Positions 1,790 through 35,069 of a stretch of 49,307 nucleotides of DNA are shown here, piece by piece. The translations under genes were made by a program, and so were the position numbers. The stretch comes from an uncultured Clostridia bacterium. Its GTDB lineage: Bacteria > Bacillota > Clostridia > Christensenellales > Borkfalkiaceae. Location: assembly GCA_964615285.1 (NCBI GenBank), contig CAZTND010000004.1:1233-50539 (forward strand), read 5' to 3'. How positions within the stretch are numbered: position 1 is the first letter of the stretch; each line of letters begins with the position of its first letter. Under the pieces are notes generated by a model. The model was given only the letters and a program-made list of their open reading frames with translations. It ran no database searches and was not told the origin of the DNA.

Positions 1790-2786
1790 ATGCGGTACGA
1801 TTTGAAAATTTTTACCGAAAACATCGAGCCGGAGGCGGTGCATCAGATATACACCCTTTTGGAGCAGCCCGCATTCGCGGGCGCAAAGGTGCGCATCATG
1901 CCCGACGTGCATTACGGCACGGGCTGCGTCGTCGGGTTTACCGCCACGGCGGGGGATAAAATGATCCCCAATGTGCCGGGCGTCGACCTCGGTTGCGGCA
2001 TGTACACGGCGGAGATCGGCAGGGCGGAGTTTTCGTTGTCCGCGCTGGACGATCATTCACAGCGGTTCGCGCAATCTCGGACTGCAGGTGGCAAAAATTT
2101 ATCAGAAAATGGCGGTCGAAAGCTGTAAGTCCTGCGCGCAGGACGAGCGGAAGCGGGTCACCGAAGAACTGAAAGCGGCGGGCAGGCAGGGCGAGATTCC
2201 CGCCGCCGTCGATGCGGTGACGGCAAAATATGCCCACAGGACAAAGATCCCCGCCGAGCTTTGCTACCTGGAGGGGGAAGAGATGCGGGCGTATCTCGAC
2301 GACCTGCGGCTCTGTCAGCAGTTTGCCTCTCTCAACCGCCGCAAAATGGCGGAGGAAATTCTGAAATTCCTGAAAATTTATCGGTATTCGGACTTTGAAA
2401 CGGTGCATAATTTCATCGATGCCGATAACATCGTCCGAAAAGGCGCCGTTCCCGCGCATAAGGGGCAGCGCGTGCTCATTCCCATGAACATGCGCGACGG
2501 CTGTCTGATCGCCGTCGGGAAGGGCAACGAGGACTGGAACTTTTCGGCGCCGCACGGCGCGGGCAGGGCCTGCCGCCGCAGCGAGGCAAGGGAACTGTTC
2601 ACGGTCGAAGAATTTCAGGAGAGCATGCAGGGCATTTATACGACGACGGCAAACCGGTCGACGCTCGACGAATCGCCGATGGCGTATAAGCCCATGCGGG
2701 AGATCGTCGGCCTGATCTCTCCCACGGTGGAGATCGAACGCGTCATAAAGCCCGTCTACAACTTCAAGGCGGCGGAATCGAAATAA
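1790..2786 (+). pseudogene. rtcB: RtcB-family RNA ligase, disrupted by an internal deletion plus frameshift
   Basis: N-terminal part (MRYDL..IMPDVHYGTGC..VDLGCGMYTAEIG..SALDD) starts at ATG 1790 in one frame and stops at 2126-2128. The remainder (IIHSGSRNLG..FASLNRRKM..SAPHGAGR..SPMAYKP) is in another frame and ends at 2786. The frames join near 2050-2058. The segment carrying the GxGNHF metal-binding motif, expected between GCGM and HSGSR, is absent. Confidence 0.8.
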
Positions 2787-3415: not shown

Positions 3416-3891
3416 AGACAGTCATTGTGCTTTCGGACACGCACGGTCACCGCGCGGCGATCGAAAAACTGTTTCCGCTCTTTGCCGAAAACGATTGCAT
3501 CATCCACCTCGGGGACGGCAACCGGGATATGGCGCAGGTGTACACGGCATTTCCCGACAAGACCTTCGTCTGCCGCGGCAATTGCGATTTTTCCGCGCCC
3601 TACGCGCGGGACGAGTGGGAGATCCAAGTGGAAGGCGTAAAGATATTTGCCTGCCACGGGCACGCCTACGGGGTCAAGTCCGACCTTGCGAAACTGCGTT
3701 CGGAGGCGGCGCGCCGCGGCGCGCGCATTGCGCTCTACGGGCACACGCACATCGCTTCCGCCGAGGAACAGGACGGCGTTTTGCTGCTCAACCCCGGTTG
3801 TGCGGGGCTGTATACGTCTGCCCCGAGCTATGCCTATCTGGTCATCAACGGGGATAAGATCACTTCGACCGTCGTGCCGCTGTCGATATAA
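3412..3891 (+). CDS. YfcE/MJ0936-type metallophosphoesterase
   Basis: 159 aa. Contains VLSDTHGH, GDG, GNCD and GHTH motifs. Start overlaps the rdgB stop (ATGA). Confidence 0.85.
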   Translation: MKTVIVLSDTHGHRAAIEKLFPLFAENDCIIHLGDGNRDMAQVYTAFPDKTFVCRGNCDFSAPYARDEWEIQVEGVKIFACHGHAYGVKSDLAKLRSEAARRGARIALYGHTHIASAEEQDGVLLLNPGCAGLYTSAPSYAYLVINGDKITSTVVPLSI

Positions 3892-3916
3892 TAAAGAAGG
3901 CAAGGAGAGGAGAACA

Positions 3917-4504
3917 ATGGAATTTTTGAAGGGAGAATTGTTTTGGGTCAGGCGGCCCAAGGAATTTTTCATCGGCGCGGACCGAGCGGAGATCGTCACC
4001 GAGCCGCACACCGACCTCTGGCAGCGGACGTATTACGGCTTTTGCAACGACAACGCGCCCCTGCTTTTGACAAAGACTTCCGAGCAGTATTTTTCGTTCA
4101 CCGTCCGGACGGCGTTTCAGGGCAAGACCCGCTTCGACCAATGCGGCGTGGCGGTCTATCAGGACGGCGAAAATTGGCTGAAGGCCTCTTCGGAGTATGA
4201 GAACGACAAATTCCAGCGGCTCGGCAGCGTGGTGACCAACGGCGGATATTCCGATTGGGCGACGACGGACATCCCCGCATCCGTCAGTGAGATGTGGTAC
4301 CGCCTCTCCCGCCGCGGCCCGGACTTCTGCGTGGAGTGCAGCGAGGACGGAAAAATTTTCCGCCAGATGCGCATCTGCCGTTTGCACGCGGGCGCGGGGG
4401 AGATAGCCTTCGGCGTCTATGCCTGCAGCCCCGAAAATTCCTCCTTCCGCGCCGTGTTCACCGACATGACGGTCGGCGAATGCATGTGGAAGGAACATCA
4501 TTGA
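3917..4504 (+). CDS. DUF1349-like protein (concanavalin-like fold, unknown function)
   Basis: 195 aa starting at MEFLKG, with GGAGAGGAG upstream. Resemblance to the DUF1349 family is from memory of its sequence pattern (DLWQRTYYGF, FDQCGV.VY). The upstream part of the 3647 ORF overlaps the previous gene and is not used. Confidence 0.65.
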   Translation: MEFLKGELFWVRRPKEFFIGADRAEIVTEPHTDLWQRTYYGFCNDNAPLLLTKTSEQYFSFTVRTAFQGKTRFDQCGVAVYQDGENWLKASSEYENDKFQRLGSVVTNGGYSDWATTDIPASVSEMWYRLSRRGPDFCVECSEDGKIFRQMRICRLHAGAGEIAFGVYACSPENSSFRAVFTDMTVGECMWKEHH

Positions 4505-4515
4505 AAAAAGCCTAT

Positions 4516-4558
4516 AAAAAAATGCCCGTCGGTAAAGAAGTCCGACAGGGCATTTTTT
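4516..4558. terminator. bidirectional rho-independent terminator between convergent genes
   Basis: Stem ATGCCCGTCGG / CCGACAGGGCAT (one bulged A), 9-nt loop. An A-run lies 5' and a T6 run lies 3', so it can terminate both strands. Confidence 0.65.
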
Positions 4559-4567
4559 CATGTCTTG

Positions 4568-7225
4568 TTATACCTTGCTCCTCGAAAGGAAATAATAGGC
4601 GACGGCGAACACGATGATGTTCAATAGATAGACGAAGGGGATGACGATGAATTTGACGACCGTAACGGCGTCCGTCAGATTGACGTCTGCGATCAGGTCG
4701 ATCGCGACCAGCAGTATGAACGCGGCAAGGAAAGCCACGATGCCGTTATAGATGGAAGAATTGTTCTTCAATCGTCTGCAGCAGGGCTGGAATTTTGCAA
4801 AATACAGCACCGCGCATACGGCGGGCGGAAGGAGCGCGCAGACCAGCATCGTGACCAGGTATCCGACGCCGAGGCCGAGCTGTCCCCGGAACACGGCGGC
4901 GATCACCGTTTCAACGATGGCGACGGCAAAAAACAGCAGGCTCGCCCGCAGAAGTGCCAGACCCTTGTTGAAGAAATCTTCGGGCATTTCCCGTTTCTGC
5001 GCCGCGCCGCCGGCCGTCCACACGCGGAGACCGTCGTAGCGCGCCTGTTCTTCGATGTCCTGAAAATCGATCCTGCCGGGCGTCAGGGGCCGGGTAGGCT
5101 CGTAGGCGGCTTCGTTGTATTTTACGGCGGGTTCTTCCGACCGCGCATAATTTTCCGCCTGTGCGGGGCCGTTCATGCGATATTCTTCGCCGACCGTTGC
5201 CGTCTCCGCTTCCGCCTGCGGCGGGGGCGGCGTTTCACGGAAGGACGGCGTTTCGTGTTTTTTGAATCCCGCGCGGTAAATGCGCGAAACGATCTCTTTG
5301 TAATTGCGTTCTTCGTCCGTGCGGGAAATGTAGAGGGGCGGAATGGACCGTTTGTCCGCCTGTCCGCGGTATTCCTCCGGGGTGTCTGCGCTCCGTTCGC
5401 TTCCGCCGTAGAGATTTGACGCCGCGTTTTGCGGCTGTGCCTGTGGCAGCGGCTGTGCCTGCATCGGTTGGGGCGGCCGGGCGGGCATGGAGTACAGGTT
5501 GCCGGCCGGGTAGGCGCTGCCGGTATAAACATTTTGCGGCACGCTCTCGTTCTGCGTCGGTCCGACGGGGGGCTGCGGGACGGTATATCCCGGATCCTGG
5601 GGCGCGAGGTACGGTTGCGCAGGGGCTTCCTCCGCTGCGACCGGCCCGTTTTGCGCCGCTTCGGGAGCCGGAGGGACGGCAAATCCCAAGGGCATGCGCT
5701 GCGGCAGGATGGGGGCGTCCTCCGCTCTCGGTTCGCCCTGCACCGGGGCAGGAGGCTCCGGGGGAGCGGGATATTCCGTTTGCTCGAAGGGCGGCGGAAC
5801 GACGGGGATCTCCTCTGCCGCGGTCGGTCCGCTCTGCGTTTCTACCGAAATATTTTCAGAGTGTGCGGAATAGCCGGGCGGCATGGGACGGGGCAGAATG
5901 AAATCTGCCGCCGCGTCCGATCCGGTCGGAACGGCCGTTTCCGTCTCTTCGGGGACCGCACCGTTTTCTGCCGCCTCCGCCGTCGGTGTTTCCGCATTTT
6001 CTGCGGATATTACCGCTTCGTCTGCCGCCGCGGCAGATGCGTCCGGAGTTGCTACGGCAAAGGCCGCCGCGTCCTCCGCTTCCGTCTTTTCGGCTTCGGC
6101 GACCGGTTCGGCCGTCGTTTCCGTTTCGTTTTCAGTTTCAGCTTTGGGTTCGGCCGTGGGTTCGGTTTCGGCGGCGGATCCCGTTATCGGTGCGCCGCTT
6201 TCCGCTTCCGCGGGTTCTGCGGTCTCGGTTGTTTCGGCGCTCGCTGTCGTTTCCGCGGCGATGGGCCGGCTTTCCCGTGCGTCGGAGATGAGGACGGAAT
6301 AAGGTTCGGCAAATTCCTCTTCCACGATGGGCGTGCGGGAAGTCGCCTGGCGCAGGATGCGGAAATCGAGTTTTTCGGGCGGCGGATTGGAAAAGTCAAA
6401 ATCGTTCTCGGAGATCAGACTGTCGATGATGGTGCGGGAATATTCCCATTCCGCCTGGTTCTGTTCGGCGATCGCCCTGCCCGATTCGGTCAGGGAAAAG
6501 TACCGCCGCCTGCCGCCGTTGGAAACGCCGCCCCAGTAAGATTTGACGTATCCCTGCGATTCCAGCCTTTTGAGCGCGCTGTAAAGAGTGGGCTGTTTCA
6601 GAGTGTACTGCCCGTGCGATTTTTTTTCGATCTCGCTGATGATGTCGTAGCCGTAGCGATCGCCCTCGTACAGGGTGCGCAGAATGATGGTGTTGATGTG
6701 CCCGCGGATGAGATCGGAACTGATGGAATTTTTCTTGGGTTTTTCGGCGTCCGGTCTGCCGTTCTCTTCTGCGCTGTCAGCCGTGTCGTAGACCTCTTCA
6801 CCTGCGTCCTCATCTGCGTCTGCGTCGGGTTCTTCCTCGTCTGCGTCCGCATCGGCTTCATCTTCGGCGGGGATTTTGGCTTCTTCGGCGCCGCTGTCGC
6901 CCGAGGGCTCTTCCGTTGCGGGTTCCTGCCCGTCGGCGGGGTCGGGCGCGTGCCCGGCGGTTTCCGCGGCGGGCGCGGTCTCGACGGAACTTTCCCCGGC
7001 TGCGCTTTCGCCGATCGCATATGCGCGGGTGTCGGGGAAAGCGGCAGGGGCGTCCGCTTCGTCGCGCTCGGCGGAAAAAACGATGTCCGTCTCTTCGCCC
7101 GCGCCGCCCGTTATCGCACCCTCAACGGGTTCGTCATCGTCGTCCGCAAAGGGGAAACCCGTCGATGCCTTTTCGTCGGTTTCTTCCGTGAAGGGGAAGA
7201 AGTTTTCTCTTTTTTCGTTATCCAT
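4568..7225 (-). CDS. membrane-anchored PadR-family winged-helix protein with long acidic and Pro/Gln-rich low-complexity regions
   Basis: Start chosen at MDNEK (ATG 7225, GGGAG 12 nt upstream). The PadR core is INTIILRTLYEGDRYGYDIISEIEKK..LKQPTLYSALKRLESQGYVKSYW..RRRYFSLTESG. Four hydrophobic helices occupy the last ~150 aa. Confidence 0.8.
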   Translation of the reverse strand: MDNEKRENFFPFTEETDEKASTGFPFADDDDEPVEGAITGGAGEETDIVFSAERDEADAPAAFPDTRAYAIGESAAGESSVETAPAAETAGHAPDPADGQEPATEEPSGDSGAEEAKIPAEDEADADADEEEPDADADEDAGEEVYDTADSAEENGRPDAEKPKKNSISSDLIRGHINTIILRTLYEGDRYGYDIISEIEKKSHGQYTLKQPTLYSALKRLESQGYVKSYWGGVSNGGRRRYFSLTESGRAIAEQNQAEWEYSRTIIDSLISENDFDFSNPPPEKLDFRILRQATSRTPIVEEEFAEPYSVLISDARESRPIAAETTASAETTETAEPAEAESGAPITGSAAETEPTAEPKAETENETETTAEPVAEAEKTEAEDAAAFAVATPDASAAAADEAVISAENAETPTAEAAENGAVPEETETAVPTGSDAAADFILPRPMPPGYSAHSENISVETQSGPTAAEEIPVVPPPFEQTEYPAPPEPPAPVQGEPRAEDAPILPQRMPLGFAVPPAPEAAQNGPVAAEEAPAQPYLAPQDPGYTVPQPPVGPTQNESVPQNVYTGSAYPAGNLYSMPARPPQPMQAQPLPQAQPQNAASNLYGGSERSADTPEEYRGQADKRSIPPLYISRTDEERNYKEIVSRIYRAGFKKHETPSFRETPPPPQAEAETATVGEEYRMNGPAQAENYARSEEPAVKYNEAAYEPTRPLTPGRIDFQDIEEQARYDGLRVWTAGGAAQKREMPEDFFNKGLALLRASLLFFAVAIVETVIAAVFRGQLGLGVGYLVTMLVCALLPPAVCAVLYFAKFQPCCRRLKNNSSIYNGIVAFLAAFILLVAIDLIADVNLTDAVTVVKFIVIPFVYLLNIIVFAVAYYFLSRSKV

Positions 7226-7255: not shown

Positions 7256-7284
7256 ATTATACAATAAAAAAAGATACTTGTCAA
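7256..7284 (-). promoter_or_regulatory. sigma70-type promoter of the PadR-like gene
   Basis: Minus strand reads TTGACA-17 nt-TATAAT (consensus), about 30 nt upstream of ATG 7225. Confidence 0.6.
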
Positions 7285-7322
7285 TGCTTTGTCGCAAAAT
7301 TCATTTTTCAAAAATAAATTCA

Positions 7323-7343
7323 GTATTATGTCAGACATAAAAC
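7323..7343. repeat. 21-bp palindrome copy A (GTATTATGTCAGACATAAAAC)
   Basis: Matches the ideal GTATTATGTC-A-GACATAATAC at 20/21 positions. Lies in the divergent intergenic region between the PadR-like and thioesterase genes. Confidence 0.8.
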
Positions 7344-7452: not shown

Positions 7453-8208
7453 ATGGAAAATTTTTACATGTGCGATCTGGAATTTGAGACCCGATATTCC
7501 GACTTCGATTGCTATGACCGGCTGAAGCTGTCCTCCCTTCTGAATTTCATGCAGGAGGCGGCGGGGGTCAGCGCCGACGAACTCGGCTGCGGTTCCTCGT
7601 TCCTTTGGCCGAAAGGATGGGGGTTCATCGTCACCAATAACTACCTGGAAGTGTATCGGCCCATTGCGGTCGGCGAAAAACTGCGCCTGAAGACCTGGCC
7701 CCTGCCGCCGAAACACATCGTCTTCGAGCGGCATTACGAACTGTGCTCTTCGTCGGGGGAAAAAGTCGCCGCCGCGGTGTCCCGCTGGTGCCTGCTCGAT
7801 CTGAAAAACAAAAAGTTCCTGCCTTCCGCCGCACTGGAAGACCAGGACTACTCGCGCTATAATCCGAAAAAAACCATCGATTTCAAGGCGTGGAAGATCC
7901 GGCCCGCCTGTCTCGAGGGGGCGGCGCCGGCGTTTGCCATGAAGGTATACGGCAGCGAGTGCGACCACTACATGCACGTCAACAATACCCGCTATGCGGA
8001 TTTTTGCATGAATTGTTTTTCTTTGGAGGAATTGAAAGAACGTGCCGTGCGCTCCTTTCATATCGTCTACGAGGAGCAGTGCATTGAAGGGGACGAGCTC
8101 TCTTTTTATCGCTTGCCCTTACAGGAAGAAGCCTTTCTCATTGTCGGCGTAAAGAAGGATGGCGGGCAATGTATGCGCGCGGAAATCACGTTTTCAAAAG
8201 AAAAATGA
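7453..8208 (+). CDS. acyl-ACP thioesterase
   Basis: 251 aa. The N-terminal hot-dog pattern (FETRYSDFDCYDRLKLSSLLNFMQEAA) and the second hot-dog half (ECDHYMHVNNTRYADF) are typical of the acyl-ACP thioesterase family. An alternative start at 7468 is possible. Confidence 0.8.
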   Translation: MENFYMCDLEFETRYSDFDCYDRLKLSSLLNFMQEAAGVSADELGCGSSFLWPKGWGFIVTNNYLEVYRPIAVGEKLRLKTWPLPPKHIVFERHYELCSSSGEKVAAAVSRWCLLDLKNKKFLPSAALEDQDYSRYNPKKTIDFKAWKIRPACLEGAAPAFAMKVYGSECDHYMHVNNTRYADFCMNCFSLEELKERAVRSFHIVYEEQCIEGDELSFYRLPLQEEAFLIVGVKKDGGQCMRAEITFSKEK

Positions 8209-8209
8209 A

Positions 8210-8230
8210 GTATTATGCCAGACATAATAC
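8210..8230. repeat. 21-bp palindrome copy B (GTATTATGCCAGACATAATAC)
   Basis: 20/21 match to the ideal palindrome. Begins 2 nt after the thioesterase stop codon (8206-8208). Confidence 0.8.
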
Positions 8231-23748: not shown

Positions 23749-26226
23749 CTAAGGAGAGAGGCGCAGCGGGAATGGCTTTCGCCGAAAGGGAAAAAATATT
23801 CGCAGCCAATCGATGAAGATGGCTTGTCGGTGGATATCCTTTTTTTCGTTACGTCCGCTTTCCAGAATATATGTGTCTGAAAGGGCAGGGACGTTTGTTC
23901 GGGCGGCACGGGCGGTCGTGCTGCATTGTTTCGGCATCCGCCACCATTCTCGGGGGATATACCCGCCTTTATCCTCGTTTTCCTGGTATTCTGTCAGACA
24001 TAATATATTGATCATATCGCTTTTTATCTCGTTTTCAGTCGCATTTTCCGTCTTTGTGCTTCCGGCAAAGCGCACTTTCGGTAAAAGAATAGTCTTTCCG
24101 ACAAATTCGTTGTAGTAGGGGGTGACGGAATAAGTGTATGTCTTTCCGGGTTGGACATCCGTATCTGTGAATCGATCGAGGCATTTCCCTTGATAGACCG
24201 TCCGAAATCCGTATTCATCCTCTCTGTTTATAATTATTGCATAGTAATCTGTTTGACATAATTCTATGCAAATTCCGTCAGATGCCGTCGAGATGCCGAT
24301 ATTTGACAGGGCCGGACGGGAGAAAAACGTGGACTGTTCCCGCGGGCGGCTGCTTTTTTTGAAGAGGTCGTGCACCGTCTTTTCCTGTACGGGGGCGTTG
24401 GGGTCGCAGAGCACGAGCCTGTGATTTTTTTCATATTCCGTCTTGTCCAAGGTATATTCGCAGACCTCGGGGGATCTTTGCAGGGCGGGGGGCGGCGCTT
24501 CCGCGTACAGTTTTTCCAGGATTTTTGCGTTGATGTTGGCGGGCAGCCCGCCGCCCGTTATCTTTTCCATGGACGTATTGTCCGCGTTCCCCAGCCATAC
24601 GCCCACGGTGTCGCCGGCGGTATACGAGATGCAGTAGGCGTCGGTGTTGCCCGTGTCAGTGCCGCCCGTCCCCGTCTTGGCGCACAATTCGTATCCGGCG
24701 GAAACGCTTTTGAGTTTTCTCGCCGTGCCGTCCTGCACGGCGTCCGAAAGCATGTCGTTCAGCAGGGTCACGCTGTCCTCGCCAAAGACCCGCCGTTCGC
24801 TTGTTGCCCGTTCGTATATCGTGTTGCCGTTGGCGTCCGTGATTTTGCGGACGAACGCGGCGGGGGCATACAGCCCGCCGTTTGCAAAGGTCGTGTAGGC
24901 GGCCGCGATGTCCTGCAGCGGGTATCCCTTTTTCATGCCGCCGAGCGCCAGGGCAAGGGAACGGTCGTCCTTTTCCACGGGCAGTCCCATTTTTTCGAGG
25001 TATGCGGCGGCTTTTTTCACGCCCAGGGCGTTCAGGATCTTGACGGCGGGCACGTTGTAGCTCTTGGCAAGCGCTTCCCGCGCGCTCACATAGCCGTGGT
25101 ATTCCCCGTCGAAATTGCGGGGGGCGTAGCCCGAAAAGTCCGTCTTTTCGTCTAAAACGGGGGTGGCGGGCGCGATCAGATTCTCTTCGAGCGCGGGGGC
25201 GTAGACCAGGAGGGGCTTGATGGCGGAAGCGGGCAGCCGCGGTGCGCTGCCGATGGTCGAATAAAACGCCTTCACTCCCCGTTCGGCGTTGCCGATGACG
25301 CAGAAACTTTTGTCCGTTTCGCTCATGGAGGACAACTCTTCCAGCTTCTTTTGCAGTCCGCCGTCCAGGTAGGTGTAAATTTTCAGCCCGCCATAGGCAT
25401 TTTCCCCGATGTATTCCTCTGCTTCGGAAAATACGCCGCTCAAGTAGCTTTCGGCAAATCCCCGGCGGCTGTGTCCCTCTGCGGGCAGCTCTTCCGCCGC
25501 GGCTTCCCGCCGCTCTTCTGCGTCGATGTATCCCTCCTTTTCCATGACGTTCAGAATAAAATTCCGCCGCGCCAGGCAGTTTTCGGGATTTTTGAAGGGG
25601 GAATAATTATTGGGGGATTTTACCATTCCCGCCAGCGTCGCCGACTGTGCGACGGTCATTTCTTCGGGGGCGCAGCCGAAGTAAAAGCGCGCCGCGCTTT
25701 CCAGCCCGTAGCAGTTGTGCCCGAAATAGATGGTGTTCAGGTACATCTCCAGGATCTCTTCTTTGGAATACCGTTTTTCCAGCTGTCGGGTGAGCTTGAT
25801 CTCCTTGAGTTTTCGGTCGATGGTCTTTTCGGGGGAGAGCTGCGTATTTTTGACGAGCTGCTGGGAGATGGTGGAGGCGCCCTCCTTGAAGGAAAGGGTG
25901 GTCACGTTGCGCCAGAGCGCTTTGGCCATGCGCCTGTAATCCAGCCCCTTGTGCGAAAAGAAGCGCTTGTCCTCCGCCGCAAGAAAGGCGTCTACGGTGT
26001 ATGCGGGCAGCGCGTCGTATTCCGTGCCGTTTTCGCCCGAAGCGGAACATTCGGCGATCAGCCCGCCCGCCCCGTCGTAGACGGAGACGTTGTTTTTGAC
26101 GGGATGCAGGGCGGAGGGGTTGAGGGAGGCGGAAGCGGTCGCCGGCAGGTAATATATCATGCACCCGACCGCCGCGACAAAGAGGGCGGCGAGGGTGACC
26201 AACACTATTTTTTTCACGATCCTCAT
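23749..26226 (-). CDS. class A penicillin-binding protein (glycosyltransferase + transpeptidase) with Fn3-like C-terminal domain and an atypical tail
   Basis: 825 aa. Signal-anchor helix at the N-terminus. GT51 motifs EDKRFFSH.G and GASTISQQ. Transpeptidase motifs SAIKP and KTGT. PGKTYTYSVTPY Fn3-like segment. The last ~103 aa are W/R/C-rich and unlike any domain I recognise. Confidence 0.85.
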   Translation of the reverse strand: MRIVKKIVLVTLAALFVAAVGCMIYYLPATASASLNPSALHPVKNNVSVYDGAGGLIAECSASGENGTEYDALPAYTVDAFLAAEDKRFFSHKGLDYRRMAKALWRNVTTLSFKEGASTISQQLVKNTQLSPEKTIDRKLKEIKLTRQLEKRYSKEEILEMYLNTIYFGHNCYGLESAARFYFGCAPEEMTVAQSATLAGMVKSPNNYSPFKNPENCLARRNFILNVMEKEGYIDAEERREAAAEELPAEGHSRRGFAESYLSGVFSEAEEYIGENAYGGLKIYTYLDGGLQKKLEELSSMSETDKSFCVIGNAERGVKAFYSTIGSAPRLPASAIKPLLVYAPALEENLIAPATPVLDEKTDFSGYAPRNFDGEYHGYVSAREALAKSYNVPAVKILNALGVKKAAAYLEKMGLPVEKDDRSLALALGGMKKGYPLQDIAAAYTTFANGGLYAPAAFVRKITDANGNTIYERATSERRVFGEDSVTLLNDMLSDAVQDGTARKLKSVSAGYELCAKTGTGGTDTGNTDAYCISYTAGDTVGVWLGNADNTSMEKITGGGLPANINAKILEKLYAEAPPPALQRSPEVCEYTLDKTEYEKNHRLVLCDPNAPVQEKTVHDLFKKSSRPREQSTFFSRPALSNIGISTASDGICIELCQTDYYAIIINREDEYGFRTVYQGKCLDRFTDTDVQPGKTYTYSVTPYYNEFVGKTILLPKVRFAGSTKTENATENEIKSDMINILCLTEYQENEDKGGYIPREWWRMPKQCSTTARAARTNVPALSDTYILESGRNEKKDIHRQAIFIDWLRIFFPFRRKPFPLRLSP
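23986..24006. repeat. 21-bp palindrome copy D (GTATTCTGTCAGACATAATAT)
   Basis: 19/21 match to the ideal palindrome. Lies inside the 3' tail of the PBP ORF. Confidence 0.7.
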
Positions 26227-35048: not shown

Positions 35049-35069
35049 GTATTATGTCAGACATAATAT
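35049..35069. repeat. 21-bp palindrome copy C (GTATTATGTCAGACATAATAT)
   Basis: 20/21 match to the ideal palindrome. Lies 14 nt after the GNAT stop, at the start of a 325-bp non-coding gap. Confidence 0.8.

Follow-up and report, generated by a model that had tools for sequence, protein, structure and literature searches.

The window analyzed here is a 49,307-nucleotide (nt) stretch of DNA from an uncultured Clostridia bacterium (GenBank assembly GCA_964615285.1, contig CAZTND010000004.1, positions 1,233 to 50,539, forward strand). Its minus strand carries a gene for a protein of 885 amino acids (aa) in which a PadR winged helix is joined through a long acidic linker to four C-terminal transmembrane (TM) helices. 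Here, we report this PadR-4TM protein, its family, and a set of asymmetric DNA sites, one of them at the gene's own promoter, that flank the replication terminus as placed by GC skew and gene-strand bias. We tentatively read the protein as a membrane-anchored terminator.

Gene, protein architecture and family

The gene and the parts of its product are as follows (window positions, strand, residues, basis).

4568..7225, minus strand: coding sequence of the PadR-4TM protein, 885 aa (stop codon 4568-4570; architecture kept in homologues)
6707..7225, minus strand: acidic disordered N-tail, residues 1-173 (composition, net charge -46)
6410..6706, minus strand: PadR subfamily-2 (PadR-s2) winged helix with a single C-terminal dimerization helix, residues 174-272 (Pfam and NCBIfam matches)
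6335..6409, minus strand: family-specific conserved extension after PadR, SENDFDFSNPxPxxLDFxILxxxTSR, residues 273-297 (invariant alignment columns)
5306..6334, minus strand: acidic low-complexity linker, T/E/A-rich and then P/Q-rich, residues 298-640 (composition)
5240..5305, minus strand: conserved helix motif LYxxRxxxERNYKxxxxRIY, residues 641-662 (alignments; AlphaFold2 helix, pLDDT 64-73)
5006..5077, minus strand: conserved juxtamembrane motif IDFxDxExxAxxDGLRVxT, residues 717-740 (invariant F, A and T columns)
4580..4969, minus strand: C-terminal four-helix TM domain, residues 753-882 (hydropathy; AlphaFold2 pLDDT >95)

The longest frame of this open reading frame (ORF) opens at TTG 7297. 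The start was assigned to ATG 7225 because a consensus promoter lies downstream of the TTG, a GGGAG motif stands just 5' of the ATG, and the closest orthologue begins with an identical MDNEKREN.

The Pfam PadR domain (PF03551) was matched at residues 181-252 (E 4e-18; 65.6 bits against a cut-off of 27) and TIGR03433 (NCBIfam) at residues 174-271, so that the PadR module of the original prediction is present but lies at 174-271/272, slightly off the ~190-290 given there. AlphaFold2 modeled this part as helices a1-a3, a beta-wing and one long a4 (model residues 90-114), the canonical subfamily-2 fold with the single helix after the wing that the subfamily requires, and the nearest solved structures were PadR-s2 proteins of 116-145 aa (PDB relatives, E 8e-27). 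Members of subfamily 2 are small soluble proteins of ~110 aa, which this one, with 885 aa and four TM helices, is not; it does combine a DNA-binding domain with at least one TM region in one polypeptide, as transmembrane transcriptional regulators (TTRs) are defined (PMC10269533).

Acidic low-complexity sequence spans roughly 440 aa, with two short conserved motifs within it; residues 331-480 are A/E/T/P-rich and residues 481-640 P/A/Q-rich, and AlphaFold2 confidence was low for the extension at residues 273-297. The sole tandem repeat detected in the gene (Tandem Repeats Finder) was a 27-nt unit present 2.2 times at 6807-6866, with none in the DNA of the linker. Hydropathy placed four hydrophobic helices at ~761-882, and the AlphaFold2 model of the C-terminal part, built from a 53-sequence alignment, showed four TM helices and two lower-confidence cytoplasmic helices over the conserved motifs. 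The hydrophobic C-terminus thus does come out as four TM helices, and the description of the product as a membrane-anchored PadR protein with long acidic disorder holds. The predicted topology is N-in/C-in, because positive charges precede TM1 and recur in the TM2-TM3 loop and at the C-terminal end; the outer loops would be only ~5-10 residues long and would offer little substrate to a site-1 protease for the proteolytic release raised in the original prediction.

Searches with the C-terminal 4-TM domain gave nothing usable from Pfam, from the ESM Atlas (features and fold) or from Foldseek against the PDB. Subthreshold matches to DUF1129 (a HAAS-superfamily domain, like DUF1700 and DUF1048) came from 12 of the 53 C-terminal domains, limited to the TM part and scoring at most 22 bits where the cut-off is 29.1, and the window protein itself gave none; above the cut-off DUF1129 was not found in the window's own genome and was found in 1 of 151 genomes of the phylum. 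The HAAS three-helix core was not detected in the C-terminal domains.

A search of 5.8 billion proteins, with 8000 candidates scored, returned 642 homologues at E ≤ 1e-3. All but one of the best 120 (119/120) have PadR, a long linker and the 4-TM C-terminus in one frame, on a shared plan of short acidic N-tail, PadR, ~25-residue extension, variable linker, two motifs and 4-TM domain; identity in the PadR domain is 72-98% among them. This survey of the architecture refutes the objection, raised with the original prediction, that the ORF might be a chimera or an assembly collapse, as the homologues share the whole plan and the gene has no sizeable tandem repeats. It also corrects the impression of a singular oddity: the architecture is the norm of a large family, and the one unusual trait of the window protein is its N-tail of 159-173 aa, among the longest of the family (median 16 aa, net negative in 69 of 81 representatives).

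A profile of the last 175 residues, searched against 1.84 billion representative proteins, found 398 clusters (50% identity), and the domain is C-terminal in every one. PadR is present in 80 of the 85 full-length representatives, and the remaining five begin inside the linker. Relatives are encoded in 465 species-representative genomes, and the best matches carry the names Borkfalkia, Gallimonas, Christensenella or "uncultured Clostridia". Among 300 genomes sampled evenly from the class, the long form turned up in the window's own order alone, and the best matches in other orders were ordinary PadR proteins of 112-148 aa. Family proteins are 401-957 aa long, with linkers of 75-676 aa (median 281) that are net negative in 81/81 representatives. 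Other subfamilies (P0082, P0088, L091 and many representatives) have an E/R/Q/K-rich linker that resembles a coiled coil or a single alpha helix and is still net acidic.

Polar sites at the gene's promoter and around the terminus

The promoter and the four sites in the window are as follows.

7256..7284, minus strand: sigma-70-type promoter TTGACA-17-TATAAT of the PadR-4TM gene (12/12 consensus match)
7311..7343, minus strand: polar site 1, at the gene's own promoter (core palindrome TTATGTCTGACATAA, 7326-7340; 18-mer, 7323-7340; plus extension)
8210..8227, minus strand: polar site 2, beginning 2 nt past the stop codon of an acyl-ACP thioesterase gene
23986..24003, minus strand: polar site 3, within the 3' part of an ORF for a class-A penicillin-binding protein
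35049..35066, minus strand: polar site 4, in the interval that separates a GNAT gene from a convergent AraC-family gene

The consensus promoter named in the original prediction was confirmed (TTGACA at 7284-7279, TATAAT at 7261-7256). The palindrome described with it does lie upstream of the -35 element, at a distance of 41 nt; as a 21-bp repeat (7323-7343) it has one mismatched pair, and only the 15-bp core (7326-7340) is perfect.

Upstream of the orthologous gene, TTATGTCnGACATAA (≤2 mismatches) was found in 74 of 81 loci, in constant orientation, with the ...ATA[G/A]TAC end facing the gene; a perfect 12/12 promoter is present in most of the orthologous loci. Relative to the promoter, the palindrome is centered at -54 to -56 (46 loci), at -65 to -67 (12 loci) or at -79 to -87 (16 loci, a class that takes in the window's palindrome at about -84), and the offsets between the classes, ~11 and ~32 nt, are near one and three helical turns. 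A conserved and phased palindrome of this kind is a strong phylogenetic footprint and points to probable autoregulation, positive or negative. A functional link between palindrome and gene is supported. A role as a private operator is not, since the palindrome is one member of an array of sites that are polar with respect to replication and lie on both sides of the terminus.

More distant orthologues of the same order have other inverted repeats at the same place, with the related half-site GTAYTATG/CATARTAC. Examples are TACTATGCAAA-T-TTTGCATAGTA (genome G083, locus L093), GTATTATGCAA-N9-TTGCATAATAC (G141, L094) and ACTATTATAA-N13-TTATAATAGT, which straddles the -35 element (G009, L091); the recognition helices of these three orthologues are changed as well. 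Many orthologous promoters contain a second GACA-type element inside the -35/-10 spacer, e.g., TTGACAAATTTTGTCG or TTGACAAAnnnCGACAAA (loci L009, L016, L018, L020, L024, L027, L028, L030, L034 and others), which is absent from the window promoter and could be a second binding site.

Genomes were scanned with the 18-mer TTATGTCNGACATARTAC (≤2 mismatches), using the reversed 18-mer as a control. Related genomes gave 6-28 strand hits each, against 0-1 for the control, and the window holds four copies where 0.03 are expected; across the remainder of the class, the 15-mer core does not rise above background. The consensus of 46 aligned sites, TA-TTATGTCtGACATAGTAC-TnTGnAnA, is about 30 bp long and asymmetric: its palindromic core is strong, and just one flank carries a conserved extension. 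Site copy number tracks the presence and similarity of the PadR-4TM winged helix: within the main family the recognition helix does not vary, three family genomes with 0-1 sites have a divergent winged helix (47-65% identity), and in two other family genomes that lack canonical sites the search for the PadR-4TM gene gave no match either. Neighboring sites are often ~11-12 kb apart (contigs G453:C22, G452:C5 and G000:C4), those of G453:C22 lying at 11.4, 23.1, 35.5, 46.6 and 57.3 kb. A promoter regulon was considered for the extra sites of G000 and rejected, as 3-4 of 12 have promoter-like sequence within 140 nt, at unphased distances; no riboswitch was found between G000 sites and ATPase genes.

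Replication direction was taken from GC skew and gene-strand bias. Site orientation agrees with the local skew in 39 of 40 cases (G000, 14/14; G222:C2, 10/11; G452, 9/9; G453:C22, 4/4; G448:C23, 2/2). On long contigs (G473:C1, G472:C1, G475:C1, G471:C1 and G222:C2), one group of minus-strand sites is followed by one group of plus-strand sites, and the switch coincides with a flip of the GC skew from positive to negative and with a flip of the gene-strand bias, which together mark it as a terminus. An association with oriC was rejected, given a skew switch of the terminus type and the location of dnaA on other contigs. In G473, 12 of 13 sites are on a single 418-kb contig, 26% of the 1.6-Mb genome. 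The maximum of the cumulative skew falls 0.2-4 kb from an innermost site in 5/5 contigs, as follows (skew maximum versus nearest innermost site).

G473:C1: 263,582 versus 263,076
G222:C2: 78,739 versus 78,550
G448:C23: 21,314 versus 20,916
G452:C2: 30,877 versus 29,188
G472:C1: 345,009 versus 340,964

A fork that comes from the origin meets the extension side of a site first, and a fork that has run past the terminus meets the core first. The PadR-4TM gene itself is on the lagging strand, head-on to replication, in 63/63 species loci with scorable skew, as is expected if the orientation of the promoter site is fixed by the direction of replication. A nearly symmetric site variant, GAATTATGTCTGACATAGATC, occurs where the GC skew changes sign, at the end of G000:C37 and the start of G000:C44 (L085:3042 and L086:5) and at G452:C2:29188. 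In G000, this variant sits at a contig break next to a tyrosine-recombinase gene (Phage_integrase family), and the region may be a Xer/dif neighborhood.

Two further features adjoin the PadR-4TM gene.

4511..4561, bidirectional: intrinsic terminator between the PadR-4TM gene and a convergent plus-strand gene (-25 kcal/mol, z -7.2)
7453..8208, plus strand: divergent acyl-ACP thioesterase gene, with polar sites 1 and 2 on either side (Pfam)

Because the terminator follows its stop codon and the flanking genes are on the opposite strand, the PadR-4TM gene was taken to be monocistronic. The thioesterase gene is its divergent neighbor in 32 of 81 loci; in the window and its three closest relatives (L001, L003 and L005), it lies between two polar sites that are separated by 850-890 nt. 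The plus-strand ORF at 3920-4504, which begins MEFLKGELFW, runs convergently into the same terminator. A minus-strand ORF at 3860-4561 (233 aa) resembles an antisense shadow and was rejected as an operon partner, as it has no Pfam match, is antisense to the plus-strand ORF and is separated from the gene by the terminator. Farther away, an RtcB-like ORF (1971-2786, plus strand) covers only profile positions 182-425 of 426, with the N-terminal half absent from the frame.

A possible fork trap and the alternatives

The reading that we favor, tentatively, is that the PadR-4TM protein is a membrane-anchored Ter-binding protein resembling the replication terminator protein (RTP), a likeness that concerns mode of action rather than family membership. 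Asymmetric sites in two opposed groups flank the terminus inferred from skew and strand bias, and in 74 of 81 loci the putative terminator gene has such a site at its own promoter, both of which are marks of a fork trap. Binding of the sites by the protein, arrest of forks and a role for the membrane anchor are what we infer.

In the proposed mechanism, a dimer of the PadR-s2 winged helix would bind a ~30-bp asymmetric element, TA-TTATGTCnGACATA[G/A]TAC-TnTGnAnA, in which a weaker half-site overlaps the strong palindromic core. The chromosome would carry some 10-25 copies that flank the replication terminus as two groups of opposed orientation. A fork arriving from the origin would reach the weak side first and pass, a fork that had gone beyond the terminus would reach the core first and be stopped, and termination would thereby be confined to the terminus region. 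One copy, helically phased upstream of the gene's own consensus promoter, would autoregulate the gene. The C-terminal 4-TM domain would keep the protein in the membrane while the long acidic linker acted as a leash, flexible and DNA-repelling, on which the winged helix could reach the chromosome; the terminus region would thus also be tethered to the membrane, the simplest role for an anchor combined with an acidic linker. The broader claim, that Christensenellales-type gut Clostridia carry a third, independently evolved fork trap that is membrane anchored and couples the terminus to the membrane or division site, is conceivable and is put forward with somewhat more reserve.

Several points weigh against this reading. 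Polarity by itself is no proof of a trap, because selection against blocking normal forks gives the same polarity, and the evidence for binding and fork arrest is computational throughout. GC skew is only a proxy for replication direction, and the genomes are fragmented metagenome-assembled genomes (MAGs), in which the description of the sites as terminus centered rests on a few contigs of 200-550 kb. In G472 the nearest site is 4 kb short of the skew maximum, the order of the groups is reversed near the end of contig G453:C22, and the upstream palindromes differ in the more distant orthologues of the same order. The RTP family (PF02334) gave no match at E ≤ 1 on the protein and none in the genome, the family profile found no RTP chain at E ≤ 10, and RTP was absent from the 50 best structural matches. 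Finally, we know of no terminator protein that is membrane bound.

The protein could organize or tether the terminus at the membrane or division site, in the manner of MatP-matS, Noc or RacA, with no physiological fork trap, its sites being polar for no other reason than that normal forks must meet a tight asymmetric complex from its permissive side. We regard this as unlikely but deserving of serious attention, for it would account for the anchor and the long flexible linker, for the clustering of sites around the terminus at a spacing of roughly 9-20 kb and for the many sites that lie at gene ends or within genes instead of at promoters. The nucleoid-membrane tether suggested in the original prediction comes close to what the site distribution suggests. 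Against an organizer without a trap, no polarity is known for matS, NBS or ram sites, and the coincidence of the skew maximum with an innermost site in 4-5 of 5 contigs suggests that forks end there. A protein other than this one might bind the polar sites, with the PadR-4TM gene merely carrying one upstream and serving an unrelated function. The tetrads of the core are spaced as ATGT-N3-ACAT, against ATGT-N8-10-ACAT in canonical PadR operators (PMC3506622), and the link between protein and site is drawn here from sequence. Such a binder is nonetheless decidedly improbable in view of the site at this promoter, whose orientation is fixed and whose position is helically phased in about 74 species, the copy number that tracks this winged helix, the precedents of tus and rtp, and the failure to find an RTP-family gene in the genome.

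An ordinary membrane-bound one-component transcription factor, whose 4-TM domain would sense a membrane or lipid signal and which would regulate itself and a small regulon that might include membrane proteins and the divergent acyl-ACP thioesterase, is improbable. The promoter-proximal and phased site at the gene's own promoter would suit it, as would the thioesterase gene as divergent neighbor in 32 of 81 loci, those G000 sites, a part of the set, that lie upstream of genes for P-type ATPases and a membrane protein, the weak DUF1129 matches in 12 of 53 C-terminal domains and the 158 PadR-type TTRs of a published census (PMC10269533). Most extra sites, however, are off promoters (at 3' ends, in convergent gaps or intragenic) and are oriented to the adjacent genes in the opposite way to the site at the gene's own promoter, and a regulon leaves both the orientation switch at the terminus and the confinement to about a quarter of the chromosome unexplained. 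Several sites stand just past stop codons (one follows the thioesterase by 2 nt, and others trail YgjP-like genes by about 30 nt), as polar roadblocks to transcription would, and their replication polarity would then be secondary to the co-orientation of genes with replication; with several sites intragenic, and with the terminus restriction and the match to the skew maximum unexplained, we consider this hardly credible.

If the proposed terminator function is true, a third fork trap would be an independent test of what fork traps are for, with a different protein family and a membrane anchor, in an order of gut bacteria rich in uncultured members, and it could link replication termination to positioning of the membrane or division site. 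The family would be a natural case in which to ask how a membrane-tethered DNA-binding protein finds its sites through a disordered linker of 75-676 residues, and the polar sites would be a practical sequence marker of terminus and replichore orientation in the fragmented MAGs of this group.

Relation to known systems

PadR-s2 regulators (LmrR, bcPadR1/2, 1XMA and 9QBC) are soluble repressors of ~110-145 aa with operator spacers of 8-10 nt, whereas here the domain sits within a membrane protein of 885 aa, with 3 nt between the tetrads and with sites that are polar with respect to the chromosome. FtsK resembles the PadR-4TM protein in three respects: it is anchored by four TM helices, its long linker is Pro/Gln-rich, and its winged helix reads polar sequences that point toward the terminus (KOPS). 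KOPS, however, are 8-mers in hundreds of copies, the domain order here is reversed, and the window protein had no Pfam match to the FtsK/SpoIIIE translocase motor at E ≤ 1.

TTRs such as ToxR, CadC, TcpP and BcrR likewise tether a cytoplasmic DNA-binding domain to the membrane; BcrR shares the four TM helices with minimal loops and CadC the disordered linker, and an activator-like site position upstream is common to both (PMC10269533, PMC7888679). They differ in using OmpR-type or XRE DNA-binding families, in having few promoter targets and in having no known replication-polar arrays. The 158 PadR-type transmembrane regulators counted in the census are listed there without characterization (PMC10269533). 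In HAAS-PadR dyads (DUF1700/DUF1129 with a standalone PadR), PadR is likewise coupled in function to a membrane module made of helices (PMC11237479). The present protein has both parts on one polypeptide, joined in cis by a long linker, and the HAAS core is the part that went undetected. Our literature search found no described PadR-type or membrane-bound terminator and no polar terminus sites in Clostridia; on PadR with TM helices or a PadR-type terminator, it found only the TTR census and the structural comparison of PadR-s2 with RTP.

The fork traps known are Tus-ter and RTP-Ter only, which are narrowly distributed and thought to be convergent, and the reason for their existence is still debated (PMC10331603). 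In each of them, a ter site within the promoter of the terminator gene (tus or rtp) autoregulates that gene (PMC10331603). Tus-ter shares with the present system the polar sites in two opposed groups, the skew switch at the innermost sites and the adjacency of the gene to an autoregulating ter site (PMC10331603), but Tus is a monomer of unrelated fold with no membrane anchor, and ter is non-palindromic.

The likeness drawn in our reading is to RTP-Ter. PadR-s2 proteins and RTP have a common topology, dimer organization and single C-terminal helix, without sequence similarity, and RTP shares part of the PadR YGYE phosphate-contact motif (PMC3506622), at which position the window protein has YGYD. 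A winged-helix dimer with a single C-terminal dimerization helix would be the binder in both systems. A Bacillus subtilis Ter consists of a weak A and a strong B site, to each of which a dimer of RTP binds, and forks encountering B first are blocked (PMC10331603). About 10 composite sites of ~30 bp, strong plus overlapping weak, in two opposed groups around the terminus, and a site in the terminator gene's own promoter (PMC10331603), have their counterparts here. RTP is a small soluble protein of ~120 aa, against 885 aa with acidic disorder and a 4-TM anchor; the site sequence is unlike that of Ter, the protein does not belong to the RTP family by sequence, and fork arrest is inferred here. 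For a fork-trap or terminus site system, the new elements would be a different protein family, a membrane anchor and a universally acidic linker.

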